The notes below the pieces were generated by a model. The model ran no database searches. It saw only the letters and a list, made by a program, of their open reading frames with translations, and was not told the origin of the DNA. Source: an uncultured Actinomycetes bacterium (GTDB lineage: Bacteria; Actinomycetota; Acidimicrobiia; IMCC26256; PALSA-610). Taken from it: a DNA stretch of 64,000 nt. Position 1 is the first letter of the stretch; each line of letters opens with the position of its first letter. The DNA lies in the NCBI GenBank assembly GCA_963729375.1, contig CAVSNP010000008.1, forward strand, positions 60,540-124,539, given 5' to 3'. Below, in pieces: positions 151 through 63,985 of this stretch. A program made the translations under genes and the position numbers.

Positions 151-1076
151 ATGGATCGCACCGCGCCCTTGATGGTCCGGTCCTTGCCTGGGCCGTTCAA
201 CGCGGTCGAGATCGAGGGTGTGCGACCATCAGACGCCGGTGAGGAATCGAAGTGCCGTGTCCTTCGAGACACACTCGCATGTCATGCCGTGGTCTGCCTT
301 CGGTTCTCCGCGCCACTCGATGACGACGAGGGACGTTCGGTCGCGTCGATGATCGGCCCGATCAAAGATCCGGTCGGCCAGACTCGCGACGGGACCATGC
401 TGCGTTACAGCGAGGACCGTCAGATCATCGACGCTGGGTTCGTGCTGACCGACGAGTTGCGTGCCGGGCTGGGCGACCTCTCGTTCGGTGGTCTCGATCC
501 GCTCCGTCCCGGTTTATTCGAGACGTTCCACTCGGACGACACCTACACCGAACGGCCGGCCGCGGCGACCGTGCTGCACGCGCGGGAGCTTCCGTCAGGT
601 CCGGGCGGCGCCACGAATTCATCGACATGCGCGCCGCGTTCCAGCTCCTCGACCCCGCACTGCAACGGCAGTTGATCGGCCTACATGTCGTGAACAGCTA
701 CAACAACCATGGCGCGTTTCCCCCACGCGTGTCAGCCGAGGGACCGTTCGAACAGCTCATCGACGTCTCACACCCGATCGTGCGGTCCCATCCAATCACG
801 GGTATACCCGCGCTGTACATCGACCTCGACCGCGCCACCCACATCGAAGACATGCCCGAGGCCGAAGGCCGCGCCCTGCTGCGCTCGTTACAAGACCACG
901 CCGAGACACGAGCCCCGCGATACGCCCACACGTGGCACCCCCACGACGTGCTCATCTGGGACAACGCGTCGGTTCAGCACAAAGCCAGCGGCGATTTCCC
1001 CGTCGGTGAACCCCGTCGTTTCTGGCGATTCATGATCGAAGGGTCCCAACCCGCCGCCTACCAACATCCCGACTGA
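151..1076 (+). pseudogene. TauD/TfdA-family Fe(II)/2-oxoglutarate dioxygenase, split by a 1-nt frameshift near 613-616
   Basis: ORF 103-675 carries the N-terminal half ('FHSDDTYTERPAAATVLHARELPSGPGGAT'). ORF 627-1076, in another frame, continues with 'EFIDMRAAFQLLDP...HTWHPHDVLIWDNASVQHKA'. The halves join if one base is added at acg|gaa (613-616). Likely start is ATG 151 (MDRTAPL). Confidence 0.75.
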
Positions 1077-1177
1077 CCGCGGAACGCCAACGCGACGAGC
1101 GCGGTCTCGCCGAATCGAACGGGTACGCCGAACGCGCCGAAGTATCACCTCGATGCGGGGTTGGGCAGACTGAGACG

Positions 1178-1846
1178 GTGAACCCAGCCGAAGGCCCGGA
1201 TCCCGCCGCGCTGGAGGTCAAGCCGCGTTGGCGGGGAGTGTCGCACGAGGCGGCCGCGTTCGTCTTCCCAGTACTCGGCGTCGTCCTCGTCGCCGTCGCT
1301 CACACGACGGCCGCGCGCTGGACGGCCGTTGTGTACACCGTCGGTGTCACGGCGATGTATGCCGCGAGCGCGTGTTACCACCGGGGTCGTTGGAATCCGT
1401 CGGTCCGACGACGCCTCCGCCGGCTCGACCATTCGATGATCTTGGTTGGCATCGCCGCGACCTACACCCCGATCGCCGTTGTGGGACTCGACGCGCGCAG
1501 CGCGCGAATCCTGCTCGGAGTCGTGTGGCCCCTCGCGTTGGCCGGGATCGTCGTGCAGATGCTGTGGCTCAACGCGCCACGCTGGCTCGTCGCGAGCCTC
1601 TACGTCGTCATCGGTTGGACGGCACTCGCGTTCGTTCCGGTGCTGTGGCACGAGCTTGGCGTCGTCACGTTCTCGTTCATCGCCTTCGGAGGTGTCGTGT
1701 ATTCGATCGGCGCGCGGATCTACTCATCGCGTCACCCCGACCCGATGCCCGCGGTGTTCGGATTCCACGAGGTGTTCCACGCGCTCGTGATCGCCGCGGG
1801 GTTGATCTTCTACGTCGCGATCGCACGCGTCATCGTCTCGGGCTGA
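1178..1846 (+). CDS. hemolysin III / PAQR family membrane protein
   Basis: 222-aa multi-pass hydrophobic ORF with the family motifs 'RLDHSMI' and 'GFHEVFHALV'. GTG start. Confidence 0.85.
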   Translation: MNPAEGPDPAALEVKPRWRGVSHEAAAFVFPVLGVVLVAVAHTTAARWTAVVYTVGVTAMYAASACYHRGRWNPSVRRRLRRLDHSMILVGIAATYTPIAVVGLDARSARILLGVVWPLALAGIVVQMLWLNAPRWLVASLYVVIGWTALAFVPVLWHELGVVTFSFIAFGGVVYSIGARIYSSRHPDPMPAVFGFHEVFHALVIAAGLIFYVAIARVIVSG

Positions 1847-1859
1847 ACGCGCGCGCAGA

Positions 1860-4097
1860 TCACTGGCCGGCAGTGATGGCGGCGTTGACGTCGGGGACCG
1901 GGATTGGCGTGTCGACCGGTTGAGGATGCCGACTGGGTGTGGCAATCGGTTCCGGTGCGCCGGGGACAGCTGCCGGGATGAGCGCACTGCACGCCCGGAG
2001 GGCTTGCTTCGCGGCTGGCGATGTGAGGTTCCGCGACCCTGTGATTGGGTTCCAACCGTGAGTGCGGAAGCAGGCGAGGAGGCGTTGCAGCGCGGCGGGA
2101 GGTCCGAGCCGGATGTCGCCGTAGGCTCCGGCGCCGATGTTCGGTGTGGCGCGTACCTTGATGGTGCGGATGGCGTGTTGTCGTCCGGCGCAGTCGTAAA
2201 GCGTTCCCGGTGGCGTGCCGTGCCAGACGATGGGGTTGACGTGGGTGCACGCGTGGGCGACGAGCGCGTCAATTTGGTTCGGGTCGCCGAGGGTGAACCC
2301 GCCGGTGTCGACAAAACGGAGCTCGTTGTCGGCGACGAGTGTCGCGAGCCGGTCCCGCGTCATGGCCGGGTCGGTGCCGTAGAAGCCGCCCATGGGCATG
2401 ACCGAGTCGCCGGCGATGATCGGCTCTTCGGCTTCGGAGCTGCTGGGTACGGCAACGAGCCACCGCTCGTGATGATGCTGGCGGCGAAGCCAGGCCAGCT
2501 CGGCAGGCGCGAGGCCGGCACCGCCGATCCCGGCACCGCCGAACCCGAATGGCACGTTCCCGGCGCCACCTCGCGGGGTCCCTTTGAGCGCGGGCCCGGA
2601 TGCGGCGTAGGCGGCGTCTTCGGGGTGGCGCACTCCTGAGAGCGCCCACGCCCCAGGCGCGACGAGTGCGACGGCGAGCCCGGCGGCAAGCACCAGACTG
2701 AGACGGCGGCGCAGGAAACGCACACGTAGCGCGCCAGCGAGGACGAACGCGGCGGCGACGGCGAGTCCGACCGGCACAACGGCGCGGAGTGCGGGATAGG
2801 CGTTGACCCGGCGCAGCAGTATCACCTCGAGGATCGCGGTGCCGGCCAATGCGACAAGCACCCAGGCCGTGCCCGAACGCCCGGCCCGGCGGGCGAGCTC
2901 CACACTGATACCGACGAGGGCAGCGACTGCCGGCGCGAAGGCGCACACGTAGTAGTCGTGGAAGACGCCTTGGGTATAGGCGAACACCAGGTAGCTCACG
3001 ATGCCGAACCCGCCCCAGAGCACGAGTGAACCAACCTGAGCTCTGGAAAGCCGTCGACGGACGGCGAGCACCACGCCGGCGAGGAGCGCGAGCGCCGCGG
3101 GGACGACAAGCCACGTCACTTGGTCGCCCATACCCGCGTTGAACAGCCGCGCGATCCCGGGCGTGCCACCGAGCCCAGGCTGGCTGGCGAGCACGGCGGT
3201 GAGGTTCCCCCCGACGAAGCCTCGCGTCGACGTTGGCAGGCCGAAACTTTGGTCGCCGGTCAGGCGTCCGAAGCCGTCGGCGCCGAAGACGACGTTCTGG
3301 GCGGTGTTGTTCGTGCTGTTGGCGACGTACGGGCGGCTCGACGCGGGCGTGAGGTCCACGAGGGCGATCCAGCTTCCGGCGATGAGCAGGAACGCTGCGC
3401 CCGCGAGCACCACGTCGCGGAGCCGGCGCCGCCATCCAAGCCGGCCGGCAACGAGGTAGGCACCGAACGCGCCCGGCATCACGAGCCCGGCGACGAGGAG
3501 TTTGGCGAGGAAGCCCAACCCGCAACAGCATCCCGCCACGACCAACCAGCCGGGACGCTGGTCGTTGATGGCGCGCTGCGTGGCGTAGGCGGCTGCGACC
3601 AGACAGAGCACGAGCATCGCGTCGGGGTTGTTCGCCCGGCTCACCGCCACCATCACCGGTGTCAACACGAGCGCTACTCCGGCGACGCGACCCGCGAACG
3701 GACCCCAGGCTCGGCGCACCGTCGTCATGAGGAGCCCGACCGACGCCACTCCGGCAAGCACCGAGGGCATCAGCAGCGACCAGCTCGTATATCCGAAGAC
3801 TCGCGCGCTCAGCGCGCCGAACCACAGCGCCAGCGGTGGTTTATCGGTCGTGATCCAGCCGCCCGGATCAGATGCGCCGAACAGGAAGTTCCTCCACGAC
3901 TGCGTCATCGAACGTTCTGCCGCCGCGTAGTACGGGTTGCTGTAACCGTTCCTGGACAGGCCCCACGCGAACAAAACCAGCGCGCCGATCACGATCAACA
4001 ACTCCGGCCACCCAGCCACGATCCGCTCCCGCCACGACTGACGCGCCGTGTCGGCCGGCACCGACGGGGTATCCGAAAGCTCGGTGAGAGCTACCAT
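1860..4097 (-). CDS. glycosyltransferase family 39 (PMT_2/ArnT-like) membrane protein with long soluble C-terminal extension
   Basis: ORF 1860-4325; probable ATG at 4097 (MVALTEL). 'YSNPYYAAAERSMTQSWRNFLFGASDPGGWITTDKPPLALW' followed by many TM segments is typical of GT39. The Arg-rich 76 codons upstream look non-coding. Confidence 0.85.
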   Translation of the reverse strand: MVALTELSDTPSVPADTARQSWRERIVAGWPELLIVIGALVLFAWGLSRNGYSNPYYAAAERSMTQSWRNFLFGASDPGGWITTDKPPLALWFGALSARVFGYTSWSLLMPSVLAGVASVGLLMTTVRRAWGPFAGRVAGVALVLTPVMVAVSRANNPDAMLVLCLVAAAYATQRAINDQRPGWLVVAGCCCGLGFLAKLLVAGLVMPGAFGAYLVAGRLGWRRRLRDVVLAGAAFLLIAGSWIALVDLTPASSRPYVANSTNNTAQNVVFGADGFGRLTGDQSFGLPTSTRGFVGGNLTAVLASQPGLGGTPGIARLFNAGMGDQVTWLVVPAALALLAGVVLAVRRRLSRAQVGSLVLWGGFGIVSYLVFAYTQGVFHDYYVCAFAPAVAALVGISVELARRAGRSGTAWVLVALAGTAILEVILLRRVNAYPALRAVVPVGLAVAAAFVLAGALRVRFLRRRLSLVLAAGLAVALVAPGAWALSGVRHPEDAAYAASGPALKGTPRGGAGNVPFGFGGAGIGGAGLAPAELAWLRRQHHHERWLVAVPSSSEAEEPIIAGDSVMPMGGFYGTDPAMTRDRLATLVADNELRFVDTGGFTLGDPNQIDALVAHACTHVNPIVWHGTPPGTLYDCAGRQHAIRTIKVRATPNIGAGAYGDIRLGPPAALQRLLACFRTHGWNPITGSRNLTSPAAKQALRACSALIPAAVPGAPEPIATPSRHPQPVDTPIPVPDVNAAITAGQ

Positions 4098-4158
4098 CCG
4101 CGAAATGTCATAACAAGGTTCGCAATCGTCGGAGCGAGTTCGACCTCGGGAATCATGT

Positions 4159-4545
4159 CCTATCGGTCGTCGATGGACCAGCGGTTCGGGGCGGTGCCGA
4201 TACCTCGTTCGAGGACCTCGAGACTTTCCGAGATCGTCGTCTCGAGGTTGCCGCCGCGCACATCCAGTGGGTGAGCGCCGCTTGAATGACCGCTTGCGCC
4301 GCGGCGGCGAGCATCGTGGGGACACGCGCGTCGCTCCGCAAGTCGAGTCGTGTCGCCACGAACTCAGCGATGACTCGCTGCGTGTTCAGTGGATGCCGCC
4401 GAGCACCGCCTTCACGACACTCGATGTGGTCGCGATCACCGCGATCCACTGTCGGAGTAGGTCCGTGTCCTCGGATGCGATCTGTTCGCTGTACAAGACG
4501 CGCAGCGAATTCAGGAGAAGCTCGTCGAGCAGACGGTCCACAAGC
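4159..4545 (-). pseudogene. TetR-family C-terminal (ligand-domain-like) remnant with no HTH, read across three frames
   Basis: 'LVDRLLDELLLNSLRVLYSEQIAS...VVKAVLGGIH' joins 'PLNTQRVIAEFVATRLDLRSDARVPTMLAAAAQAVIQAALTHW', then 'DVRGGNLETTISESLEVLERGIG...*'. The three segments join only with 1-nt shifts near 4390 and 4255. No N-terminal HTH is present. Confidence 0.4.
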
Positions 4546-4804
4546 GCCGCGCGCAGACCATCGCTCCGTCTGGCGATCTGGAGGTGACTGATGAACCCGA
4601 CACCGAACGGACGCTCAGTCGACTCACGCGCGGTCCGGATTTGCGAGAACCAACCGTTCCGCACCGCCGATGGTCGTACCGCCGATCAATTCCAGACCGT
4701 CGGCCTCCGAGACCGCCACCGCGAGCGGTGCCGTCACCACCTCCCATCGGCGCGTTAAGCACTGGGTACTTGATCGAACAGCTCGCACAACCGCTGTGCG
4801 ACAC
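4546..4804 (-). pseudogene. nitronate monooxygenase (NMO) N-terminal fragment with two frameshifts
   Basis: Hand translation gives 'IKYPVLNAPMG' (frame A), 'VVTAPLAVAVSEADGLELIGGTTIGGAE' (frame B) and 'GWFSQIRTARESTERPFGVGFISHLQ' (frame C). Together these form the canonical NMO N-terminus. The rest of the TIM barrel is absent. Confidence 0.55.
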
Positions 4805-7426: not shown

Positions 7427-7843
7427 ATGAACACCATCGTCGTCGGATACGACAACTCGGCCGTGGCGCAGACTGCTCTCGAGTGGGCCACGGCCCACGC
7501 ACAGCGTATTGCTGGCGAGCTCCTCGTGATCTACGTCGCGTCGTCGATCGCCGAGTGGAGCTCTCCGCGGCGCAGATCAATCCCGATCCGATTCGGCACG
7601 AGTTCGAGCGTCGTCTTCGCGGCGAGTGGACCGCGTCGCGTCGTAAGGCGCAGGTTCCCTACCGCACGAAGTTCGTTGTCGGACGCGTCGCCGAGGAACT
7701 CATTCGCACCGCGCGCGAGGAACACGCAGCACTCATCGTCATCGGCATGACGGCCCGCGGTGGTCACCAGGCGTGCATGATCACTGCACAGCAAGCTGAT
7801 GCGTCGTGCGTTCCCAGGGCTCAGTTCGATCAGATCGACCTGA
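7427..7843 (+). pseudogene. universal stress protein (UspA family), frameshifted
   Basis: 'MNTIVVGYDNSAVAQTALEWATAHAQRIAGELLVIYVASSIAEW' (ORF 7427) continues in ORF 7483's frame as 'ELSAAQINPDPIRHEF...AALIVIGMTARGG', with the shift near 7558. The expected C-terminal 'S.KLMRRA' motif lies in a third frame (shift near 7790). The 3' end is uncertain. Confidence 0.65.
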
Positions 7844-8201
7844 GATCGGCCAGGTGGTCGCGAGCCAGGCCGTTGTGACCGCAGTAGACGGCCCACTGCG
7901 ACCCGAAAGGGGGCCGCTTTTCGATCAGGCGACGCACCTTCCGGTCGGTATTGGTCGGCGCGTCGTTGGCATTTGGGAAGTACTCACGCACCGTCTTACA
8001 GGATTCGAACACCAGAGCCGTTGTGTCACCGCATGACTCGGTCACCTCACCGCCGCAGGCGACTACGGCGGGACCAATCTGCGTTTGGATGACGCCGAAG
8101 TTGCGGAACATCGGCGGGGGCGGCTCAAACGCGAATCGCAACACTGCGGCTGGGCAACCGATCAGCACTACTACGAGGGCGAGCGTCCAGAGTCTTCGCA
8201 T
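7830..8201 (-). CDS. hypothetical membrane-anchored/secreted Cys-containing protein
   Basis: Within ORF 7830-8384, the likely start is ATG 8201 ('MRRLWTLALVVVLIGCPAAV', signal/anchor-like). No family recognised. Confidence 0.45.
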   Translation of the reverse strand: MRRLWTLALVVVLIGCPAAVLRFAFEPPPPMFRNFGVIQTQIGPAVVACGGEVTESCGDTTALVFESCKTVREYFPNANDAPTNTDRKVRRLIEKRPPFGSQWAVYCGHNGLARDHLADLRSI

Positions 8202-8394
8202 GGGGCGTGGTGCCCCGTGAAGTAGCTCATCCGGGATCGGCGTGTAGACCTCCACGACCTCGAACGCTAGAACTCCTCGGGAGACCTTTGCAGCACTGGG
8301 TGCTCTGGAGTCGCCGCGCTTTTCCGCGATCGTGTTCTGCGCACGAGGCAATGGGTTTCCGTCACGCAGCCGGAGGATCGACAATCGGGGGAAG

Positions 8395-8942
8395 ATGACG
8401 GGAGATGAGTTCGCTGCGGCCCTCGACGTTGCGATCGTTTCGATGAGCGCACTCCTTGACGGCGACTGGTCGGTGAGTGCGGGATCGTTGGATTGGAGCT
8501 GCCGACAGACACTCGATCACACGGTCGATTGCGTCTTTTCGTACGCGATGCAGGTGGCCGCGTTGGCGTCTGGGGACTTCTTGCCGTTCTCGGAGCTTCA
8601 CGCGCTTGCGGAGGCCGAGCCACCCGACCTGGTCGCAGGCTTGCCGCGGTCGGCACGATGTTCCTCACGGTTGTGCGCGCCATGCCTGCTGATGCTGTGG
8701 CTTCGGATGGAGTCGTCGCGATGCACGCCGAGGACTGGAGTGCTCGCGCTGCCTACGAGGTCGTGCTCCATACCTATGACGTGGTGACCGGCCTGGGCGG
8801 GGCATTCGCGCTATCCAGCAGCCTTTCAAAAGCGATCGTCGACTCCCCAACTTTGTGGATGTTCGATCGCGACGCCGACGTCAGCGACCCGTGGACCCTT
8901 CTGCTGCTCGGTTCGGGTCGCGCCGCACCTGCCCAACCGTGA
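8395..8942 (+). pseudogene. DinB-like / maleylpyruvate isomerase N-terminal domain (TIGR03083-type) protein, frameshifted
   Basis: 'MTGDEFAAALD...SLDWSCRQTLDHTVDCVFSYAMQVA...PPDLVAG' (ORF 8332 frame) continues as 'LAAVGTMFLTVVRAMPADAV...YEVVLHTYDVV' (ORF 8493 frame). The 1-nt shift is at ~8640. A GGGGGAAG Shine-Dalgarno-like motif precedes ATG 8395. Confidence 0.6.
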
Positions 8943-9131
8943 ACGGGCGCTGCAGTAGTCGGGAGCCGCCGCATACGTAGCGCCACGTCGGCGGATGTCG
9001 TTGGGACGCCGACCTCTCAGGACATGTTTGCGAGCAGTGGGGTTGCGATTGGCGCTGTCCCTCGTCGCTCAGACGCCCGCCTCAAGCATCCCGGGATGGG
9101 AGCAAGCCGACGCAAGCGCGAGACTTGAGAA

Positions 9132-9378
9132 GTGCCTGCGGCCTGTTCGTTCTGCGCCAAGCGTGAGGCACAGGTAAAGAAGCTCATCGCCGGGAGGCGT
9201 CTACATCTGCGAGGAATGGGTTGCGCTATGCGTCTCAATCGTCTCCGAGCAGGGCATCGACCTGCCAGGCTGTCGCGTTGTGATTGATCGCGAGTGGGAT
9301 GTCGGGGGCGGAGTGCGGGCATCGTTGACCTCACAGGCCTCTGGTGTCGCATTGGATGCATTGGTTCGCATTGCTTGA
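9132..9378 (+). pseudogene. stand-alone ClpX-type C4 zinc-ribbon-like small protein, degenerate (frameshift, 4th Cys replaced)
   Basis: Hand translation from GTG 9132 gives 'PAACSFCAKREAQVKKLIAG'. After a 1-nt shift (~9193) it continues 'GGVYICEEWVALCVSIVSEQGIDL...'. This matches the ClpX N-terminal ZBD pattern C-x2-C...KLIAG..VYIC-x2-C, except that Trp replaces the last Cys. Confidence 0.45.
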
Positions 9379-9481
9379 CGTGAGCGAACGGTGAGACGTG
9401 TGCTGGCCGTGGATGCGGTAGCGTGTCGCCCACTCGGCCGCGAGGACTGGCAGGCCGGGAACGCCAGGCGGGGAGTGTCGT

Positions 9482-10759: not shown

Positions 10760-11038
10760 ACCGCCATCCCATCATCTCCCCGCACCACCTCACGCGAAAG
10801 GTACGAACGTCTCGCCTTGAACCGACAACGGCTCCGACTACCACCGCACTGATGGCACCTACTGTTGCCCATCTGAGAATCAGCGGCGATGCACGCAGAC
10901 TCGTCATCGACGTAATGGTAGATGGTCAGAACCGCGGGCCGTCCCAAACGCCGCCCACAATGCAACCCCGGCGCCGCGGATCGGGCTGATGCTCGTGATC
11001 GCGATCATCGTGACCGCACCGACTTGAGCTGAAGCGCG

Positions 11039-12027: not shown

Positions 12028-12330
12028 TCACGTCGGATTCAGGTCGTTCGCGCAGGTGTCCCGGTCTTTGTCGCTGTTTGTCCCGTCGGGACAGGTCGTG
12101 TGCGACCAAATAGCGCCGGTGAGGTTCGCTCCGGTGAGGTTCGCTCCGGTGAGGTTCGCTCCGGTGAGGTTCGCTCCGGTGAGGTTCGCTCCGGTGAGGT
12201 TCGCTCCGGTGAGGTTCGCTCAGGTGAGGTGACATGGCTGAAGTCGAGTCCGTAGAGACTTGCGCCCGTAAGGTCGGCGCCCGGGCCGATGAGGTAGTGG
12301 TGAACGAGTGACCCCGAACTATGAATGCGC
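12028..12330 (-). pseudogene. pentapeptide-repeat protein remnant (no start, frame break and TGA before the repeat block)
   Basis: The reverse complement of the 15-bp repeat reads GGA GCG AAC CTC ACC = 'GANLT' x7. It is followed by '[29 protein letters not shown]' (stop 12028-12030), a typical actinobacterial pentapeptide-protein tail. Upstream, 'GADLTGASLYGLDFSHV' lies in another frame, and a TGA replaces the first GGA. Confidence 0.55.
12116..12230. repeat. perfect 15-bp tandem repeat x7 (ccggtgaggttcgct) plus a degenerate partial 8th unit
   Basis: Direct reading: units at 12116, 12131, 12146, 12161, 12176, 12191 and 12206, all identical. 12221-12230 'caggtgaggt' is a partial copy with one substitution. 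Confidence 0.95.
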
Positions 12331-12803: not shown

Positions 12804-13622
12804 TCACTCGCTGAGTTGCCGCGCCGTATCGAGCAGCGGCGCAAGATGGCGTCGCGTCCGACGCTCGATATCTCCGAACGGCGGCACGCCACCCGGCAAG
12901 TAGTCGCCCAGCTCGTCGTCCCATCGGTCGCGATACATAGCCATGCGCCGCTCGAACGTCGCCGACCACTCTCGAGGCGGCGTTCGCTGTCGGCCTCGCC
13001 GCTCGTCGTTCTGCGCCTTCCGCAGGTAGCGATGCCATGCGTCCAGCGCATCCACGCTGCCGTTGTCGAGTAGTTCGTGTACGTCGTAGAGGTCGCGACA
13101 CTGCAGTCGCTCGGCGATGCAGCGGACCTTCTCAGCGCTGACCTCGTCGAGGGAGTAGCCGTCAATCGCCGCGTCTGCGGGAAGGTCTGGCCACCGCGGG
13201 TGCAAGGCAATGCGAATGCGCGACTCGACTAGCTCGCTGTCGGAGATGTCGAGCTTAAGCTTGCGTGGCTTGGCGCCGAGCGGCCCGATATAGGTCACCC
13301 ATGGGGTACCACCGTCCGCGTCGGTGACCTCGAGAGCGGGCATCTCCAGCCGCTGGCGGCAGGCGTCGGTCGCTGCGGCGACGAGCGCGCGTGCCTCACC
13401 GGCGGCGAGCCCATCGACGGCAGAGAAGTCGAGGTCGGCGGAGTGCCGATAGTCTTCGAAGTAGCAAAGACGCAGAAGGGTTCCACCCTTGAACACGAGA
13501 CGCGCGTCACCAACGGCACCAATTTCGGCGCAGAGGTGGGCGAGGACGTAGTCCCGCTCGATGGTTTGCGCCGGCAGGTGCTCATCGTTCGCCCGCTGAG
13601 TGACGAGGCCCTTGGCGATCAT
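12804..13622 (-). CDS. abiEii: nucleotidyltransferase AbiEii/AbiGii-family toxin (DUF1814)
   Basis: 'ERDYVLAHLCAEIG...LVFKGGTLLRLCYFEDYRHSADLDF' is the family N-terminal NTase signature. ATG 13622 overlaps the upstream stop (ATGA, 13619-13622). Confidence 0.85.
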   Translation of the reverse strand: MIAKGLVTQRANDEHLPAQTIERDYVLAHLCAEIGAVGDARLVFKGGTLLRLCYFEDYRHSADLDFSAVDGLAAGEARALVAAATDACRQRLEMPALEVTDADGGTPWVTYIGPLGAKPRKLKLDISDSELVESRIRIALHPRWPDLPADAAIDGYSLDEVSAEKVRCIAERLQCRDLYDVHELLDNGSVDALDAWHRYLRKAQNDERRGRQRTPPREWSATFERRMAMYRDRWDDELGDYLPGGVPPFGDIERRTRRHLAPLLDTARQLSE

Positions 13623-14398
13623 GCGTCGACGACTGCTTGTAGTTCGGACGCCGGATAGGGCCACGCGACGCCCCATGTCTTGTCGACCCATCCATCTTCG
13701 TCACGCGCCCTGCGATCCAGCTCGATCAGAGTGCGCCATGCGGGCGGTTCCAAGTCCCGACCAACTGGGAGTGACAGTGTCGTCGCCAGCGATCCGATAC
13801 GGCGGTATGCCGGGTCGGCCTTGATCTGACCCGCGAGGTCGCGCAATCCGACGACGCGGTGCGCCGCAACGAGAGCCTCGGCGACACGGGCTGCGCCGCC
13901 GGCAAGCGCAGGCCGAGAGGCAACGTCGAGGAGTGCACGCTCAACCGTCGCAATACGGGAGGGGCCGAGCGGCTCGGTCCCGATAAGCACAGTCGAGCCG
14001 CCTTCCCGAATAACACGCAGCGGGCGCCCGCTCAACGCCTTCTCGCGGGGCCGATACGGACTTGCCACCTGGACGGCGCGCGCTGGCCTGACCAGCAAAC
14101 CGTGATGGTCCAAGGCCGTTAGAAAACCGATGCGGTGAGGATGCCCGACGAAGACCGCTGCAACGGCCGAACCGAGGTCGTCCCACACCGCGGCCGTACC
14201 GAGCGCGCCAATCTGGCGGACGGCATACCGCCCCGCCGCCACGCGGTCGACCAGGCCGACCGTGGTCCATCGCTTCAGCAGGTTGGAGGTGGCCTGAGGC
14301 GACGTTCCCAGCTCGTGTCGAACGTCGGCGGCGCTGAACGCCGTCCGTCCCTCGTTCGCGAATCGGTCCAGCAGCTTCAACGCTCGGTCGCTTGCCAT
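13619..14398 (-). CDS. abiEi: AbiEi-family type IV antitoxin / transcriptional regulator
   Basis: Probable start ATG 14398 (MASDRALKLL). N-terminal wHTH 'FSAADVRHELGTSPQATSNLLKRWTTVGLVDRVAAGRYAV'. Positioned immediately upstream of abiEii and translationally coupled to it. Confidence 0.8.
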   Translation of the reverse strand: MASDRALKLLDRFANEGRTAFSAADVRHELGTSPQATSNLLKRWTTVGLVDRVAAGRYAVRQIGALGTAAVWDDLGSAVAAVFVGHPHRIGFLTALDHHGLLVRPARAVQVASPYRPREKALSGRPLRVIREGGSTVLIGTEPLGPSRIATVERALLDVASRPALAGGAARVAEALVAAHRVVGLRDLAGQIKADPAYRRIGSLATTLSLPVGRDLEPPAWRTLIELDRRARDEDGWVDKTWGVAWPYPASELQAVVDA

Positions 14399-14421
14399 AG
14401 TTGGCTCCAGTTCACGACTAA

Positions 14422-14478
14422 CGTGTATCTGAGACAAGTATAGCAAGAGATAGTTGTCTAAGATGGCTTAAATACACG
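14422..14478. promoter_or_regulatory. nested inverted repeats in an AT-richer leader upstream of abiEi (candidate operator)
   Basis: cgtgtat (14422-14428) pairs with atacacg (14472-14478). tctgagacaagtat (14428-14441) pairs with atagttgtctaaga (14450-14463), 12/14 complementary. The region is clearly less GC-rich than its surroundings. Confidence 0.4.
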
Positions 14479-14598: not shown

Positions 14599-15700
14599 TC
14601 ATACAGCGCGAAGGTGCCTCGGCTCGGCTGAAGTCGTGCTTGTCAGCCACTCGCTCAGCTCGTCGCCGCCGGCCTTCATATACCGCATCGTGGTATGCAC
14701 GTTCGCGTGGTTCAACAGATTGCTTGCAATTGGTAACGGCACTCCGGCGCGCAGCAGGTTCGTCGCGCAGCTATGGCGCAGCTGGTGCGGGGCAATGTGC
14801 GGGCCGTTCACCGACCTCGTCATACGGTCGAGCCAATGGTTCAAGTGTTGTGGGTCGAGCTGGTCCGCTTCGCGAAGCGATGCTGCGACCGAACGTCGTG
14901 GTCTTCCGAGATCGGACCAGCCAATCAGAACATGTCGCCGTCGCGTGCATCGGCCCGCTCAGCGAGGAGAGGCCATAGTCGCTCGGCAGCGAGGTGTGGC
15001 AGGCGCTGCTCGAAAGTGTCCAGCATCGTCCCGATCGGAAGCGTGTCCTCACCACCGCCCTTGCGGACGAAGTTGAGCAGCTTGCGTTCACTGACGTCGA
15101 CGTTTCGTACCCGCAGCCTGGTGATCTCTTCGCGACGCAGGCCACCGAAGAACGCGAGGCCGAGCACAACTGCGTCGGCGCCGTTCAGCGCGTCCCAGAG
15201 TTTGGAGAAAGTCGTGTCCGACACCGGCCGAGGCTGGCGGTTGTGAAGCGTCGGAGTGCAAACGAGGTTCGCCGGGTTGTCGCGGACCGCGCCGATTGCT
15301 TGAAGCCAGCCGTAGAAGCCGCGCATGGTCGACGCGTCTCGGTGCAGCGTCGCGGGTGAGGCGTCGCGGGTGAGGCGATGCGACCGTGCGCTCGACCCCT
15401 TCGGAGACGTTGCAGCCATGCTTCGATTTCGGCCGTGGTGATCTGCTCGAGTCGGCGATCCTGCACGCACTCATCGACGAACGACATACACAGCCTTCGG
15501 TACATCGCGACGGTCTTCGGCGCGAGTGCCTTGGACACGGTCAGGTATTTCAACCACTCCCCAACCAGCGATACTGTCGTCGTCCGTTCCGTCGCCTTGG
15601 TCGGTCGCTCCGATGGGTGGGGATAGAAGGAAGGTTCTCTCCCCGACTCGTCTCGGCAGGTCACAGCCCTAAACACAATCGAAGGAGCGCGCAGGATCAC
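14599..15700 (-). pseudogene. tyrosine recombinase/integrase (XerC/D-like), at least 3 frameshifts
   Basis: N-terminal SAM-like part 'VGEWLKYLTVSKALAPKTVAMYRRL...ITTAEIEAWLQ' (ORF 15185-15700). Middle 'FYGWLQAIGAVRDNPANLV...GLRREEITRLRVRNVD' (ORF 14925-15470). C-terminus 'HQLRHSCATNLLRAGVPLPIASNLLNHANVHTTMRY' (ORF 14599-14844). A short connecting piece lies in the third frame. Confidence 0.75.
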
Positions 15701-15743: not shown

Positions 15744-15816
15744 GCCCTCGTAGCTCAGGGGATAGAGCATCGGTTTCCTAAACCGTGTGCCGCAGGTTCG
15801 AATCCTGCCGAGGGCG
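15744..15816 (+). tRNA. tRNA-Arg (anticodon CCT)
   Basis: Hand-folded cloverleaf. Acceptor GCCCTCG/CGAGGGC. D arm GCTC-AGGGGATA-GAGC. Anticodon arm TCGGT-TTCCTAA-ACCGT (one terminal mismatch). T arm GCAGG-TTCGAAT-CCTGC. Discriminator G. No encoded CCA. Confidence 0.9.
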
Positions 15817-15917
15817 CTCTCTGACCAGGGGTTATGGACTCCAACGGGCTCCAAAGACCCGCGGGAATGGCGAATTGCCCATCCACTTGCCCATCTTTTT
15901 CGCGCCAGACTGTCGCG

Positions 15918-16864
15918 ATGCAGAGGTCGCTTCGACAGCGCGGGCAACGATCGTGGGAACTGCGCGTGCTCAACGGTCCGGTCGCGACGCGCTCACCGGT
16001 CGCAAGACCTACCTGCAGAAAAAGGGTGCACGGAACCAAGCGCGAAGCCGCGACCGAGCTCGCGCGGTTCGTCACTGAAGTCGGAGACGGCGCGCACGCA
16101 TCGACGAAAGGTTCAACGGTCGGCGAGTTGCTCGAACAGTGGTTCAGCTACAACGAAGACGACTGGTCCCCCACCGTCGTCCACACATATCGGCGGATCA
16201 TCGACCGCCACCTGATTCCGCGCTTCGGTCGTACGCCGCTTCGCCGTCTCACGACGGTCGACATCGATCTGTTCTACGCGCAGCTTCGCAAACGCGGTGG
16301 AGCAAAGGGCGGGCCACTCTCGCCGGCATCTGTGAAGCGCGTGCACGCCGTGTTGCGACGCGCGCTCACGCAATCTGTGAAGTGGGGCATGCTCACGATC
16401 AACCCCGCAGTGAACGCGTCGCCACCGCGGGAGCCCCGCCATGAAATCTCACCACCTGATCCTGCCGACGTCGCGGGGCTCATCGCGTACGCCGATGAGC
16501 ATGACCGTCCGCTCGGCTGCTTCCTTCGTCTCGCGGCGACGTCGGGCGCGCGGCTGGGAGAGTTGTGCGCGTTGCGCTGGAAGCATCTCGATCTCGAGAA
16601 GGGCGCCCTGTTCATCGAACGATCGATCGTCGAGAACGGTAAGGGTGAACTTGTCGAGAAGGACGCCAAGACCCACGAGGCGCGCCGGATGCGACGATGC
16701 TGCTTTCGGGCGGCAAGGACGTGAAGACGGTGAGCGGCCGTCTCGGTCACGCGCACGCGGGAACGACCCTCGGCATATACGCCCACTTCATCGAAGCTGC
16801 AGATGCTGACGCGGCCGACCACCTCGGGACAATCATCGACGCCGCATCGAGTAGCCGTCACTGA
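15918..16864 (+). pseudogene. phage-type tyrosine integrase with two frameshifts and an internal deletion of the catalytic core
   Basis: 'MQRSLRQRGQRSWELRV' (frame 0), then 'SGRDALTGRKTYLQKK' (frame 2), then 'VHGTKREAATELARFV...LGELCALRWKHLDL...EKDAKTHEARR'. It then jumps at ~16688 to a frame-2 tail, 'ATMLLSGGKDVKTVSGRLGHAHAGTTLGIYAH...*' (stop 16862-16864). The segment normally lying between is missing. Confidence 0.75.
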
Positions 16865-17080
16865 GAGTACGCCGGCGAAATGGCAGCCGGGGTCCGCTAT
16901 GCGGACCTGATCGCCTGCCGCGTACCCATCTACGCTCGAACCCCGATGCCGCACTCGCGATTGTTGTCTGACCCAGATCGACTGAGATACCCGTTTTGCC
17001 GTGTTCGGTGCGCGTTCTGGGGCGCGCGTGTTGCTCGGATCTCCGTGCCTTCGACGAGGACCGAACGGTTATGGCGCGGC

Positions 17081-21560: not shown

Positions 21561-21582
21561 CCAACGAATCTCACGGGCGCGG

Positions 21583-21915
21583 ACGATTCACTCCGCTCGT
21601 CAGCGCCCGAGTTCCAGCGCTCGCCGACCGAGCTGCGGCGCCTCGTCGGCCAAACCTCGGCCGGCATGATCCGGATCCTGAAGAAGCTCGGCGGCCGCGG
21701 TCTCGTGCACCGTCGACCCAGCACGAGGACGGCCGCGGACAAGACGTCATCCTCACCCGCCGCGGCACGGCGCTTGCTGAGGAATCATTCCGAGCGCTAC
21801 ACGCCATCCAACAACAAATCGTCGCTCCCGTTGCCGGCGATGAGCGGCAGCAGCTGATCACGGCGCTTGACGAACTACGGGCCGCACTCAGTCAAATCAT
21901 CGACCGACCAGAAAG
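21583..21915 (+). pseudogene. MarR-family regulator fragment (5'-truncated, frameshifted, no proper stop)
   Basis: 'SPTELRRLVGQTSAGMIRILKKLGGRGLVHRRPS' continues in another frame as 'EDGRGQDVILTRRGTALAEESFRALHAIQQQIVAPV...LDELRAALSQII' (shift ~21722). The N-terminal helices are missing. Confidence 0.55.
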
Positions 21916-23741: not shown

Positions 23742-24068
23742 TCACTCTTCGATCTCGTCGAACCGTCTCGTCGCGGCGGCTACCGCTCGACGAAATCCGC
23801 GTGCCTTGACCGGCGCTTCCAGACCGACGTCCGCGATCACGAACGCGTCGCCCACACGTCCGTACAACGGGCGCCATTGACTCCGACCGCCTCGTGGGGG
23901 CAGCTCGCGCAGCCCCTCCGCGCCTGTCGCGCTGCTCTGGTGCGGGAACGGCAATGCCGCGCCCGCCGCCACGAGCTACTCGACGGCGTGCATCACCGCG
24001 ACTCGTTCGTTCGCCGGTAGCGCATCGAGCTCGGCCTCTACTTCGGGGTGGAGCGCCACCGTCCACAC
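23742..24068 (-). pseudogene. RelE/ParE-superfamily (HigB / Gp49-like) toxin with in-frame TAG
   Basis: Hand translation from GTG 24068: 'VWTVALHPEVEAELDALPANERVAVMHAVE*LVAAGAALPFPHQSSATGAEGLRELPPRGGRSQWRPLYGRVGDAFVIADVGLEAPVKARGFRRAVAAATRRFDEIEE'. The stop is at 23976-23978. Confidence 0.65.
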
Positions 24069-48914: not shown

Positions 48915-50586
48915 ATGGACACGCAAAGTCCTCCGGCGGTGTTGAAGTTGCGCGCCCGGCGTTACCGGTTCGTCGGACCGGACCTTCTGGATCCGCGACT
49001 TCATGTCGCGTTGGTCGTCGTGACGCTTCAGGTGCTCGGCCAGACGCTCTTGCACTTCGATGTCTCGATCGCGCAGATCTTGATTGCGGTCGCGACCTGT
49101 GCCGTCATCGAGTGCGCGATCACTTTGCGCCGCGAGCATGTGGTCGCATGGCCGTCGAGCGCGTTGCTGACCGGGAACGGCGTGGCGTTCGTGCTGCGGA
49201 TTCCCGGGACCCGGCACGGAGACTGGTGGAGTCTGCGCGGCGGATGGATCTTCGCCGCCGTTGCCGCGATTTCGCTGCTCTCGAAGTACCTGATCCGGGT
49301 GGACGGCCGCCCGTTGTTCAACCCATCGAACTTCGGTCTCGTGTTGTGCTTCTTGGTGCTCGGAAGCCGGCGAGTCGATCCGCTCGACTTCTGGTGGGTA
49401 CGGCCCGGCGTCGGGCTGGCGCTCGCGTTGACAGTGATCATCGTCGGCGGAGTCCTCCTTGCGTGGCGGGTGAAGGTGCTCGGCCTCATCGCGAGCTTCT
49501 GGACGACCTACGCGGCAGCGTTGGGAGTGCTCGCCATCCGCGGGCACTGCATGACCGCCCGTTGGCACATCGGTCCGGTCTGCGACGGGTACTTCTGGTG
49601 GATCCTCGTCACGTCGCCCGAGGTACTCGTGTTCGCGTTTTTCATGATCACCGATCCCAGGACCGCACCGCGCGGTCGGATCGCACGTCGCGTCTACGGC
49701 GCCGCCGATCGCGCTCGTGTTCGTCGCGCTGGCCGCGCCTCAACGAACCGAGTTCGCCACCAAGGTCGCGCTGCTCGGCGCACTTGCGTTGGTTTGCGCG
49801 GCGCGGCCGCTCCTCGAACGACTCCTTCCGGAGGCGGGTGCGGCAGCGGACGGGCTCGCGACCGTGGTTGGGTTCGGCCAAACGGTTCGCAACGCCGCAC
49901 CCCGCAAGAGCGGGCCGACTGTCGCGGCCCGGTTACGGTTCGTCGCGGTCGTTGTTGTCGCCGCGGTCGCGTATGCGGCGATCGTCTTTGGCGCGGGCAC
50001 GCCCGCGGCGACATCGAGCGTGACGCCCGTTGCCCCCGCCCCGGCGGTACCCGCGCACTGCGCCAATACCGCGACCATACCGACCCAATCGCGACCACGG
50101 GCCGCTGGCGTGCCGCCGCCGACCATCACCGTGCGCGACGCGATCGACGTCGCGACGCCGATCAGTCTCCGCGAGGCAACTCAGATCGTCGCTGACGTCA
50201 CCAACGATCTCGCGATCGCGGCTGAAGCGATCGAGCGCCGAGACGCGGTGCTCGCCTCGAGTGTCGCCCGGTTCCTATGGCTCGACAACTTGATCTCCAC
50301 GATCTGTTCGGCGACTGGGCCGCTCGTCGTCGCGACCTATCACCTCACTGCCGCGACGGTCACCGTCGCGAAACGAACAACCGGCCAAGTCTTCCCCGAG
50401 ATCGACGTGGAACTACGGGGCGTCGTAGACGAAACGACGTTCACGCGGTCGAAAACGCCCCGCCGACTTGCCGACCACGCCGGCCGCTATCTGAACACGT
50501 TCGTTGTCACAAAAGCTGGCGGTCACTGGCTCATATGCGGAAACCGTTCCGATCCGCGCACCGCGGCGTGCGTGACCGCGACATGA
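48915..50586 (+). pseudogene. polytopic membrane protein with RnfD/NqrB-like 'ITDPRT' motif plus extracytoplasmic C-terminal domain, frameshifted
   Basis: From ATG 48915 (MDTQSPP) there are multiple TM segments ending 'VFAFFMITDPRTAPRGRIARRVYGAA'. It continues in ORF 49717's frame as 'IALVFVALAAPQRTEF...'. The 1-nt shift is at ~49706. Confidence 0.55.
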
Positions 50587-50804: not shown

Positions 50805-51259
50805 TTACGCAATGTTGGTGGAGGTAATACGGGCCTCGGCGGGTACATATCGGTCCTCGACCTCGCGTAGCCGATTGGCGAGCACGACCAACATCTTGCG
50901 GTCGACCGACGGCATCGAGGCAACGAGCTCGTCGAACGCGTGGGAGGTCAGAACCAACACCGATGTCGGCTCGGTCGTCGTGACGGTCGCGACACGGGGG
51001 AGCCGTTCGAGCAAGGCCATCTCACCGAAGAAACTTCCCGGTCCCAAGGTTCCAATGACGACGTTTTTCGAGTGGCCTGGACACGCCCGCTGACGATGAC
51101 AAAAAACTCTTGGCCTCGTTCGCCTTGCGTCGCGAGCACCTTCCCGGCCGGGAGATCGACCGGAGTCGCAAGCTTCGCGAGTGCGTCGAGCTCCCGCTTG
51201 GTGCAGCGTTCGAAGAGCCAGACGTTGCGTAGCAGTTCGATGCGAAGGTCCCGCTTCAT
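50805..51259 (-). pseudogene. cyclic-nucleotide-binding domain protein, frameshift in an A5/T5 run
   Basis: 'LLRNVWLFERCTKRELDALA...GQEFFVIVSGRVQATRK' continues as 'NVVIGTLGPGSFFGEMALLERLPRVATV'. The shift lies within ttttt (51064-51068). Confidence 0.7.
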
Positions 51260-56975: not shown

Positions 56976-57651
56976 GTGAGTTCAGCCAATCGTCAGCGAA
57001 GGCAACAGAACCGAACGGCGCGCACAGCCGCGGTCGAACAAGCGCGGCGGCGGGCGCAGCGGCGACGGCTCACGTTCGCGGCGGTGGGATTGGTCCTTGC
57101 CCTTGTCGTCGCGATTGTGCTTGTGGCGCGGGCGCGAGACAACAGCGGGAGTAGCGCCTCGACCACGACCGCGACCAGTACAAGCTCGGCGAGCACAAGC
57201 TCGGTGAGCACGACGTCCGGGCCGACCACCACCGTGGCCGGCTCGGTCGCCGGCAAGCCGTGCGTCGCGATGTCGGGCCCGTTACCCGCGGGCGCACCTG
57301 CGGTTCCGGTCAAGGTCGGCCCGCCACCGACGCATCTCGTCAAACAGGACCTGAAGGTCGGGACGGGCGCGGTCGTGAAACCAGACGCGACCGTGACGGT
57401 CAACTACATCGGCGTGTCGTGCTCGACGGGCAAGATCTTCGACTCGTCGTATTCACGGCACCAGTCGTTCACCACTCCGCTCGCCGAGGTCGTGCCCGGA
57501 TGGACGCAAGGGATTCCCGGCATGCGCGTCGGCGGCGAACGTCTGCTCGGCATCCCGCCCGCGTTGGCCTACGGCACGCGCAGCCCAGGCAGCGGCATCG
57601 CTCCCGACGAGAACCCTCTGGTTCGTCGTCCAAGTGTTGAAGACCGCCTAA
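56976..57651 (+). pseudogene. membrane-anchored FKBP-type peptidyl-prolyl isomerase, frameshift 11 codons before the stop
   Basis: From GTG 56976: a basic N-terminus, a TM segment and a Ser/Thr linker, then 'VTVNYIGVSCSTGKIFDSSY...VVPGWTQGIPGMRVGGERLLGIPPALAYG...GIAPDE'. The expected tail 'LWFVVQVLKTA*' is in another frame (extra base in 'gagaaccct', ~57612). Confidence 0.75.
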
Positions 57652-62409: not shown

Positions 62410-62492
62410 GTCACCTCACCGGTTCTTGAGCGCTGATTCGATTGGACGCGACCGGACCGGGCTGCTGATGGGCTGATCAGCAGGCGGACTCG

Positions 62493-63093
62493 TCAGCCGG
62501 CTGCTGCTGTCGTGGTCGTCGTCGCGCCGCGGGCAGGCAGCAACGGCGCGCAGATCTTGCTCGCGGCCGCGTAATGGGGATCGCTGCGCAGGCCGCGTAG
62601 CCCGGCCCCAAAGCCTCGGAAGCCGGAACCTCCTGCACCTGCGGGCGTCGAGGTCGTGGTCGGTACCTTGACACCGTTTTGGCTCAAGCACGACGTGTAC
62701 GCCTTGATCTGGGTTGCGCTCGCACCGCCGGCGAACCCGCCGCGGCCGAACCCACCGGTGGGCATGAGCGAACGGCATGCGCTGAACGCCGCCTGGTCCG
62801 CAGCCGGCAGTCCGCCACCACCACCGAAGAAGCCGCCGCCGCGCGCACCGCTCCCGCCGCACGCCGCGCGCACCGCTGCCGCCGCGCCGCCCGCCACCGA
62901 ATCCGCCTGGGAGGGTCACGCCGTGCTGCTTGAGGCACGCCGTGAAGGCCGCGAAGCCTCCGGCGCCGGACCCGCCGGCGACGGCCGTCGACGAGGGAGT
63001 CGTGGCCGCGGTGTTCGCTTTGGAGCTGCCACCGCAGGCGGCGAGGGCGACCGCGGCCAGGACCGCGATGATGGGGACGGAGAGTTTTCTCAA
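62493..63093 (-). pseudogene. lipoprotein with repeated Cys motif and Gly/Phe tracts, frameshifted (first gene of the ABC operon)
   Basis: From TTG 63093: 'RKLSVPIIAVLAAVALAACGGSSK...FAAFTACLKQHGVTLP'. Then in another frame (shift ~62895): '...GGGFFGGGGGLPAADQAAFSACRSLMPTGGFGRGGFAGG...IKAYTSCLSQNGVKVP...AASKICAPLLP'. Confidence 0.55.
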
Positions 63094-63188
63094 GGTACGT
63101 AGCAGACCACAGAAAACTCGGAGCGAGCGCGGTTTCGCATGTGGATCTCCTGTGAACCCGGGCGAATGTCGCGTTCCGCACCAGGAAG

Positions 63189-63985
63189 TCACGCAGAGCG
63201 GTATTCTTCGAAGCCGGATGTCGTCACGACGGCTCCCGAGTCGGTGATGGCCAAGGCTTGCGTGTCGGAGCGGCCGGCCAGCCACGGCGCCGCGATCGAC
63301 CCGACGGCGACCGCCGCGGTGGCGAGCGCATCCGCGATCGCGAGGTCGGACCCGACGACCGTGGCCGACATCAGCCCCTGCGCCGGCCGCCGGCTGCGGG
63401 GATCGATGACGTGGTCGCCCCGTTCAGCCCGACCCGAGGTCGCTACCGCCCCGCTCGTGACGCAGACGACGTCGGCGACGCGGTCGGGGCGCCAGGGGTG
63501 CTGAATGCCGATCCGCCATGGCCGGTCATCGCCGACCCCTCCGCGCACGACGACGTCGCCTCCGGCGTTGAGCGCAAGGCGTGAGACGCCACCGTCTGCG
63601 AGTCGGTCGACGGCTCGTTCGAGCGCCCAGCCTTTGACCAGACCGGACGGGTCAAGCGGCGCGAGCCCAGGGCGGGGTTCGATCTCTGCGTCGGCGCCGA
63701 CCGCAATGTCGAACGCGCCGCAGGTCGCATGTTTCATCTGCTCACAGCCGCGAGTACCTCGCGCACGTCGGGGCTTGCACGCGCGACGGTCAAGTCCCCC
63801 CGTCCGATTCGACTGATCTCGCTGTCGGCGCGCCAGGTGCTGAACAGGTCGTCGACCCGTTGGAACCAACCGAAGACGTCGTCGATGACGGCCGGGTCGA
63901 CGGGATCGAGCACGAACAGGCTGATCATGGTTCCCCACATCGGCTCGACCCGACGCGTCGCACGATCGGCGGTCTTGCGACTCAT
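63189..63985 (-). pseudogene. apbE: FAD:protein FMN transferase (ApbE family), frameshifted
   Basis: 'VEPMWGTMISLFVLDP...STWRADSEISRIGRGDL...VREVLAA' (ORF 63734-63985) continues as 'CEQMKHATCGAFDIAVGA...DPSGLVKGWALERAVD...GAVATSG' (ORF 63189-63938). The shift is at ~63740. Confidence 0.75.

Follow-up and report, generated by a model that had tools for sequence, protein, structure and literature searches.

Host-restricted bacteria with pseudogene-rich genomes, such as Mycobacterium leprae and Sodalis glossinidius, carry lesions of mixed ages that include many nonsense mutations and deletions, often together with an expansion of insertion sequences. Broken genes can also originate from the data, as spurious pseudogenes arise from the sequencing platform, the assembler and the coverage (PMC11017572), and indels in Nanopore metagenome-assembled genomes (MAGs) produce frameshifts that are worst at low coverage (PMC8103633). 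Consensus errors are furthermore known at methylation motifs, where a window of +/-5 nt ties the errors to the modified base (PMC6591954, PMC12392509). Related MAGs of the clade in the European Nucleotide Archive are Nanopore-only assemblies polished with one round of Medaka, whose authors point to Nanopore-related errors where coverage is low (PMC12313526; 10.1101/2024.12.19.629313). The subject here is the disruption of genes in a stretch of 64,000 nt from an uncultured soil member of the Acidimicrobiia (GenBank assembly GCA_963729375.1, contig CAVSNP010000008.1, positions 60,540 to 124,539; hereafter the window), in which 20 of about 58 protein-coding loci, or roughly one third, are disrupted. 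The pattern is probably the product of context-dependent consensus errors of long-read metagenome assembly, which would account for about a dozen of the lesions, combined with ordinary relics at seven loci.

The disrupted loci form two classes (Table 1). The 13 genes of class A each have exactly one shift of the reading frame, of +1 or -1 in every case, and are otherwise full-length; nine of these lesions can be placed against a relative, and eight of the nine are single-base indels, with the small lipoprotein gene having a net gain of one base among in-frame gaps. Class B comprises seven relics: six are multiply lesioned, truncated or internally deleted, and the seventh, the HigB gene, has a single stop codon. 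Lesions were recognized from protein matches to the relative in two frames, Pfam matches of the separate halves, three-frame reading, and a homology-free Viterbi path based on codon usage that was used in place of a GC3 frame plot, the latter being too noisy at the codon bias of the window (G+C content 63-69%). The Viterbi path changes frame at 617 (TauD), 8642 (DinB-like), 12219 (pentapeptide), 38004 (357-aa lipoprotein), 41629 (GGDEF-EAL), 49653 (RnfD-like), 62897 (small lipoprotein) and 63742 (ApbE), nearly coinciding with the positions in the initial annotation. Per kb of coding DNA, about 0.27 frame shifts are present. Every locus that the initial annotation of this DNA had listed as disrupted is indeed so, with the lesion no more than a few bases from the position given there, and its descriptions of about one third of the genes as broken and of the lesions as single-base changes flanked by two clean, family-typical halves are both confirmed. 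Three further candidates were rejected: the Viterbi change at 13622 is where two intact overlapping genes, AbiEi and AbiEii, meet, an apparent split of MntP at ~39185 (Viterbi 39187) reflects an overlong gene call in the relative, and 22007-23287 encodes an intact polyhydroxybutyrate (PHB)-depolymerase-like esterase.

The closest relative is the Acidimicrobiia MAG GCA_052148155.1. Four of its loci (L001, L085, L087 on JBKQIY010000163.1 and L004 on JBKQIY010000079.1) align collinearly with some 40 kb of the window; the DNA identity is 83-92%, and most genes have a dS of about 0.11-0.30. Two other loci, L002 and L084, were rejected for this comparison as they are not syntenic. The orthologues of all nine comparable class-A genes are intact in this MAG: in an alignment to the nearest orthologues, as proposed in the initial annotation, the indels are not shared. 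Among about 25 orthologue pairs, single-lesion genes number nine in the window and zero in the relative. A one-base repair, made in seven genes, restores the exact length of the orthologue in five of them (cNMP-binding, ApbE, 357-aa lipoprotein, FAD monooxygenase and RnfD-like). Constraint is unchanged in the broken genes, where the ratio of nonsynonymous to synonymous substitution rates (dN/dS) is 0.07-0.39 compared with 0.08-0.31 in 14 of 15 intact genes, the remaining one being a fast-evolving open reading frame (ORF) of 190 aa with a value of 0.95. The FKBP and cNMP-binding genes have the lowest dN/dS in the comparison, yet both are lesioned. Genuine decay in the clade has a different appearance, as seen in an esterase of the relative (L001 11482-12596, corresponding to window 45550-46668) with six frame-shifting indels and a deletion of ~540 bp, which is a true pseudogene and serves as an internal example; its orthologue in the window is intact (391 aa, 45859-47034). 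When seven repaired proteins and three fragments were looked up by exact match, only the LysR fragment of the window itself was returned, and a protein search with cluster look-ups found no Joint Genome Institute sequence near enough to be the population of the window. As a side observation, an amidohydrolase of the window (47590-48813, minus strand) has its best match in GCA_052148155.1 at 97% identity.

The distribution of lesions among the loci sets limits on their age. Aligned non-coding DNA has 0.022 gap events per site and a substitution to indel ratio of 7:1, and a gene of 900 bp that had been dead for the whole branch is expected to have about eight further lesions. With uniform ages, approximately 12% of real pseudogenes are expected to have a single lesion, compared with 13 of the 20 observed (P ~5e-8). 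Steady-state decay is rejected for this distribution, and the single lesions are therefore either younger than about 3% of the branch or not real, in agreement with the view of the initial annotation that they are very recent or artefactual. None of the 13 class-A lesions is a nonsense mutation, compared with about three expected alongside 13 neutral frameshifts (P(0) = 0.05).

The local context of the lesions is marked by the palindrome CGCG, which lies within 5 nt of seven of the 13 lesions against a background of 22.8% (P = 0.015). No such enrichment is seen at natural 1-bp gaps that separate window and relative (19 of 74 near CGCG), the control motifs CCGG and GGCC accompany none of the nine base-located lesions, and associations with GATC, TCGA and CGATCG are not significant. 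The same motif appears in a comparison with Logan, a collection of k-mer assemblies of public sequencing runs, in which two contigs of run ERR10755941 represent the same population as the window: L086 at 99.86% identity over 32897-36433 and L088 at 99.92% over 8716-11089. The MOSC protein of the window (33391-34293) was recorded from Logan as well, and the proteins of the window are on record from a contig of 273,872 bp with NCBI and ENA as sources. Seven differences separate window and contigs in 5.9 kb, consisting of one extra G and six substitutions (at 34432, 35631, 35778 and 9275, and at 9951 and 36268). Counting both strands, four of the six substitutions change C to T at the third position of CGCG, and a fifth is directly beside a CGCG. 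The extra G, at 36126 of the window in L086, introduces a frameshift into the FG-GAP gene that is intact in the window, and at the four difference sites within the FG-GAP gene the relative agrees with the window, making the Logan state the derived one. The C>T changes at CGCG in the Logan contigs suggest that this motif is methylated in the organism, as 4mC or 5mC (N4-methylcytosine or 5-methylcytosine). Because motif-specific miscalls and a spurious indel fit noisy long reads with an unmodelled modification, we infer that the sample was sequenced by Nanopore and that CGCG is the methylated motif.

These features invite comparison with two kinds of documented sequencing error. As in long-read consensus-error pseudogenes (PMC11017572; PMC8103633; proovframe preprint 10.1101/2021.08.23.457338), conserved genes are split by single-base indels, the lesions are absent in relatives, which appear from their contig naming to be short-read assemblies, and no other sign of decay accompanies them. 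As in Nanopore errors at methylation motifs, e.g., Dcm CCWGG or GATC (PMC6591954; PMC12392509), the lesions cluster near a short palindrome of which only some copies are affected, and five of the six mismatches between window and Logan are at or beside it. In the proposed course of events, the assembly would derive from noisy long reads, very likely Nanopore-only, at modest coverage; basecalling would be disturbed around the modified motif, apparently methylated CGCG, and the polisher would leave one base too many or too few, such that the gene is split upon translation. The class-A genes themselves would then probably be intact in the organism, and the class-B relics would stem from a separate, unrelated process of genuine gene death. 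The two alternatives of the initial annotation thus fare differently: context-dependent assembly error gains from the intact orthologues, the unchanged dN/dS, the lack of nonsense mutations and the enrichment at CGCG, the motif miscalled in the k-mer contigs, and ongoing selective gene decay is unsupported for the 13 single-lesion genes and holds only for the seven relics.

Several observations weigh against a consensus-error origin, which depends on a platform for ERR10755941, an origin of the assembly and a mechanism of error that we infer. The ClpX-ZBD frameshift is also present in L088, which aligns there with zero gaps, at the only one of the 13 lesion sites that is covered by an independent k-mer contig; it is therefore in most of the reads and is either real or a systematic error, and this ORF, in which Trp moreover replaces the Cys of a zinc ligand, is possibly a true relic. 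Not one of the nine base-located lesions is in a homopolymer of three or more bases (run lengths 1, 1, 1, 1, 2, 2 and 2 in the seven scored), unlike classic Nanopore errors, although the context is non-discriminating because runs are likewise avoided by the real indels of the TetR remnant and of the dead esterase in the relative. Six of the 13 lesions are not near CGCG, and documented methylation-motif errors are mostly substitutions, unlike the indels found here at a motif whose methylation is presumed. The homologue of a CLC channel is frameshifted in one of 80 related loci, many of them from Nanopore MAGs, so that this contig would be about 10 times worse than is typical, and the lesion phenomenon is not general to related Nanopore MAG assemblies. 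The lone frameshifted CLC channel homologue (L024 11016-11068), from the related Nanopore MAG MFD04944.bin.2.143, changes frame near residue 341-357. Finally, the lesioned genes have a mean length of 916 nt, compared with 1290 nt under a model of uniform hits per base (P = 0.017). Such a bias toward short genes is what selection, rather than random error, would give and is the main point in favor of real lesions that have been filtered by selection.

The principal rival is that genes were really inactivated in a very recent burst under relaxed selection, e.g., following a bottleneck or a change of lifestyle, with single-base indels becoming fixed in dispensable cytoplasmic regulators and enzymes and with selection still acting on large secreted and envelope proteins. 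The short length of the lesioned genes (P = 0.017-0.04), the recurrence of the ClpX-ZBD lesion in an independent k-mer assembly of the sample reads, and the presence of genuine decay in the NMO/TetR, USP, integrase and MarR relics are all in keeping with a burst, and the avoidance of homopolymers by real indels means that context cannot tell real lesions from false ones. The burst would nevertheless have to kill about one quarter of the genes within approximately the last 3% of the branch with none acquiring a second lesion; it leaves dN/dS unraised and includes the most constrained genes, it produces no nonsense mutations where about three are expected and no comparable lesion in the relative, and an enrichment at CGCG that is absent from natural gaps in this DNA is unexpected for natural indels. 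Together with its variants, this explanation is unlikely. The comparison with M. leprae and S. glossinidius points the same way: a large share of genes is interrupted here too, many by frameshifts, but the window differs in its 13 single lesions, the absence of nonsense mutations among them, the unchanged constraint, the environmental origin of the organism, and a relative that is free of the lesions. That the 13 lesions are real in the specific sense of a free-living soil member of the Acidimicrobiia having very recently inactivated about one quarter of its genes by single-base indels, possibly promoted by methylated CGCG and sparing large secreted and envelope proteins, is quite improbable.

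Chimerism of the consensus would place the error in the assembly by another route, with reads of co-assembled close strains, distinguished by nearby substitutions or indels, collapsed and the polisher arriving at a base count that is true to neither strain. Strain mixtures are common in soil metagenomes, and the Logan contigs provide variant k-mer paths for the population in this sample (seven positions in 5.9 kb); however, the differences in L086 and L088 are motif-specific C>T changes that are derived relative to the outgroup and look like basecalling error, and no clustered substitutions are seen around the lesions, which makes this origin very unlikely. Programmed ribosomal frameshifting or transcriptional slippage could in principle yield full-length proteins despite the shifts, and has nothing specific in its favor beyond the well-conserved halves. 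Orthologues without a shift at nine of nine sites effectively refute it; base-located sites lack homopolymers of three or more bases, slippery heptamers not having been specifically scanned, and as many as 13 unrelated families are affected, so that it deserves almost no credence. Context-dependent consensus error, with the relics set apart, is therefore retained as the probable explanation.

Table 1. Disrupted loci (class A, single-lesion genes; class B, relics), the longest intact genes and other features of the window
Feature	Class	Coordinates	Strand	State
TauD-family dioxygenase	A	85..1073	+	1-nt deletion at 618, C gone: CACGAA[-]TTCATC
DinB_2 / MDMPI_N-like protein	A	8377..8939	+	one frame change ~8644, adjoining CCGCGG
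Small ClpX zinc-binding-domain (ZBD)-like ORF	A	9150..9375	+	frame change ~9190-9195 (GGG[A]GGC)
Pentapeptide-repeat protein	A	12031..12330	-	one frame change ~12219-12225, just before repeat array
FAD-dependent monooxygenase	A	26287..27508	-	1-nt insertion (+A) at 27441, GCGCGCGCGA[A]GCGCG, within CGCG cluster
LysR-family regulator	A	27887..28797	-	1-nt deletion (-T) at 28059, CCCGCG[-]GCAGATC, abutting CGCG
357-aa lipoprotein	A	37398..38469	-	1-nt insertion (+T) at 38006, GTCGCGC[T]CGATG, adjoining CGCG
GGDEF-EAL signalling protein, ~700 aa	A	40667..42753	-	one frame change ~41616-41640
RnfD/NqrB-like membrane protein, 556 aa	A	48915..50583	+	1-nt insertion (+C) at 49705, GCGCCG[C]CGATCGCG
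Cyclic nucleotide (cNMP)-binding protein, 151 aa	A	50808..51259	-	1-nt deletion (-C) at 51066, ACGTT[-]TTTCGAG
FKBP-type peptidyl-prolyl isomerase	A	56976..57650	+	1-nt insertion (+A) at 57612, 12 codons upstream of stop
Small Gly-rich lipoprotein, HlyD/ABC operon	A	62496..63093	-	net +1 near 62861, GC-rich low-complexity stretch
ApbE flavin transferase	A	63195..63985	-	1-nt deletion at 63748, CTCACAG[-]CCGCGAG, adjoining CGCG
TetR-family remnant	B	4163..4580	-	first ~102 aa gone at deletion boundary 4581; 1-nt deletions at 4390, 4264
Nitronate monooxygenase (NMO) N-terminal remnant, ~70 aa	B	4581..4800	-	frame changes ~4745, ~4655; deletion-fused to TetR remnant
Universal stress protein (USP) pseudogene	B	7427..7880	+	at least 2-3 lesions: shifts ~7555, ~7775, C-terminal in-frame stop
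Tyrosine integrase relic B	B	14600..15650 (about)	-	two frame changes, ~15470 and ~14930
Tyrosine integrase relic A	B	15834..16900 (about)	+	internal deletion of ~90 aa of catalytic domain; frame change ~16700
MarR-family fragment	B	21561..21854	+	N-terminus gone; one frame change ~21722
HigB/RelE (Gp49-like) toxin gene	B	23745..24060	-	in-frame TAG at 23976-23978
GT39/PMT_2 glycosyltransferase		1860..4325	-	intact; Pfam; 793 aa collinear with relative, 91% identity
Abhydrolase_10 + fn3 protein, 701 aa		19455..21560	+	intact; Pfam; 697-aa homologue at 88% identity
S53 (pro-kumamolisin) peptidase + fn3		30503..33094	-	intact; Pfam; called product 849 aa; relative's 850 aa collinear
FG-GAP repeat protein, 737 aa		34742..36955	+	intact in window; Pfam; relative's 747 aa collinear
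Beta-helix protein, ~552 aa		55000..56664	+	intact
HlyD-type membrane-fusion protein, 608 aa		60583..62409	-	intact
AbiEi (275 aa) / AbiEii (295 aa)		12804..14446	-	intact type IV toxin-antitoxin / abortive-infection pair; genes overlap ~70 nt
tRNA-Arg(CCT)		15744..15817	+	intact; ARAGORN, Rfam tRNA 65.5 bits

For the single-lesion genes with an orthologue in the relative, the two halves are read from the protein matches. The 330-aa ORF of the relative matches TauD in frame 1 (94-618) and frame 3 (603-1073), with dN/dS of 0.39. The FAD monooxygenase is matched by residues 1-23 and 24-407 of the 407-aa orthologue in two frames with the junction at ~27439; removal of the inserted A gives 407 aa, and the FAD_binding_3 match begins only at profile position 21. 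LysR is matched by residues 1-246 and 248-305 of a 308-aa protein with the junction at ~28058, is 306 aa long after repair, and has a LysR_substrate match that ends at 167 of 209; this gene is intact in two more relatives, P0280 and P0282, the latter a Logan member of the cluster from another sample, SRR6960539. For the 357-aa lipoprotein, which had been described as a lipoprotein hydrolase, both the orthologue, matched in two frames with the junction at ~38005, and the repaired product have 357 aa, and dN/dS is 0.21. The RnfD-like protein corresponds in length to the 556-aa orthologue after repair (two-frame match with the junction at 49651-49706, dN/dS 0.25), as does the cNMP-binding protein to its 151-aa orthologue (97-98% identity over residues 1-65 and 65-151, which fall in different frames; dN/dS 0.08). 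Residues 1-197 of the 209-aa FKBP of the relative are matched and the last 12 aa are lost at the lesion (dN/dS 0.07), and repair gives 224 aa, equal to the 209 aa plus a 15-aa linker insertion. The insertion (57161-57205), which adds 45 bp in frame compared with the relative, encodes a Ser/Thr-rich repeat. The small lipoprotein is matched by residues 1-78 and 67-197 of a 197-aa protein with the junction at ~62863-62891, its repeated CxxxG motif being read in two frames. ApbE is matched by residues 1-79 and 81-264 of a 265-aa protein (junction ~63747) and has 265 aa after repair, and its Pfam match begins at 124 of 266.

The remaining class-A genes are assigned from profiles and frames. Neither half of the DinB-like gene has a Pfam match; the DinB_2/MDMPI_N domain is recovered only once the two frames are joined, with DinB_2 positions 16-118 of 128 spanning the junction. 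Three-frame reading of the ClpX-ZBD-like ORF gives CSFCAKREAQVKKLIAG followed by GVYICEEWVALC in another frame, with a weak match to zf-C4_ClpX (profile 19-39) and W instead of C as zinc ligand 4. The pentapeptide gene has seven perfect tandem units of 15 nt encoding ANLTG at 12040-12200 (minus strand), with the frame change directly upstream; the Pentapeptide profile begins at residue 1 of the downstream ORF, and the five-residue period runs on across both frames. The upstream ORF of the GGDEF-EAL gene contains GGDEF profile positions 1-141 of 161, ending at residue 411, and the whole EAL domain is in the downstream ORF. This gene is among the five longest and is in a region without counterpart in the relative, a segment spanning 39946-43770 that also contains a DUF5317 gene.

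The seven class-B loci are ordinary, genuinely dead relics and fit the familiar pattern of mobile-element remains and deletion scars, such as degraded integrases at a tRNA gene and truncated regulators, with nothing unusual about them. The NMO and TetR stumps meet at a deletion or rearrangement boundary (4581). Residues 103-242 of a 242-aa ORF of the relative match the TetR remnant in three frames, divided at 4390 and 4262, with a raised dN of 0.071, and three-frame reading of the NMO remnant yields 'IKYPVLNAPMGGG', 'APLAVAVSEADGLELIGG' and 'PFGVGFISH', each in a different frame. The USP pseudogene matches the Pfam Usp profile at 3-41 in one frame and at 44-118 in another, with the last 23 profile positions unrecovered. 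Two islands without counterpart in the relative (~12.3-17 kb and 21.5-26.2 kb) contain both integrases as well as the MarR fragment and HigB. The integrases, whose locations in the initial annotation required correction as did the strand of the cNMP-binding gene, flank the tRNA-Arg(CCT) gene. Integrase B is spread over three frames, which give its SAM-like N-terminal portion, its core and a C-terminus with HxxR...Y, and it has a weak Phage_integrase match; integrase A matches Phage_int_SAM_3 and only positions 7-63 of 172 of the Phage_integrase profile, and its C-terminal 'VSGRLGHAHAGTTLGIYAH' follows ~10 aa further on in another frame. The tRNA gene is probably an integration site and, with divergent and degraded tyrosine integrases on either side, looks like one that has been used repeatedly and whose islands have decayed. 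The AbiE pair adjoins these degraded integrases. The MarR fragment reads 'SPTELRRLVGQTSAGMIRILKKLGGRGLVHR' in one frame and then 'VILTRRGTALAEESFRALH...' in another. Three-frame reading of the HigB-like gene gives '...VMHAVE*LVAAGAALPFPH...', in accord with the TAG codon reported in the initial annotation, and the XRE antitoxin gene downstream of it (23423-23728) is intact. The segment of 21.6-26.25 kb, which has no counterpart in the relative, contains the MarR fragment, the PHB-depolymerase-like esterase and HigB/XRE, and within 24.1-26.3 kb about 2 kb are without recognizable genes.

The six longest ORFs (GT39, S53, FG-GAP, the 701-aa protein, HlyD and beta-helix) are intact and belong to the families named in the initial annotation, which had considered their sparing hard to reconcile with a uniform indel rate. 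This contrast is overstated, because the longest ORFs are intact by definition. In a simulation that spread 13 lesions uniformly over 48.1 kb of live coding DNA, the summed length of the six longest intact genes reached the observed 12.7 kb or more in 4% of trials (P = 0.04). Of the eight genes that are longest after reconstruction, two (GGDEF-EAL and RnfD-like) are in fact lesioned, with two or fewer occurring in 12% of trials (P = 0.12). The sparing of long ORFs is a mild post hoc deviation and not strong evidence of selectivity. Compensating pairs of +1 and -1 gaps relative to relatives, 7-18 nt apart, occur in intact genes at 129/147, 20802/20809 and 36504/36522, in the TauD N-terminus, the 701-aa hydrolase and FG-GAP, respectively; they may be genuine shifts that cancel out or artefacts of aligning divergent sequence. 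The HlyD-like gene has in-frame differences in repeat length compared with the relative at 61197, 61672 and 61700, akin to the insertion in the FKBP linker. A tRNA-His of 93 nt called by ARAGORN at 32994-33086 (minus strand), overlapping the 5' end of the S53 gene, is without Rfam support and is probably a false positive.

Taken together, the disruption of genes in the window is most probably a data-quality flag and not new biology, and the relics in it are ordinary. Annotation of this contig, and probably of the whole MAG, will split and under-call about one quarter of the genes, completeness estimates for the assembly will be deflated, and analyses of pseudogenes or genome reduction that use it would be misled. 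The apparent link to CGCG suggests that indels clustered at one short palindrome are a cheap diagnostic of methylation-related basecalling trouble, errors that methylation-aware re-polishing should clear. If the lesions were instead real, they would show gene decay at an unusually early stage, in a bacterium from the environment and outside of any host association.

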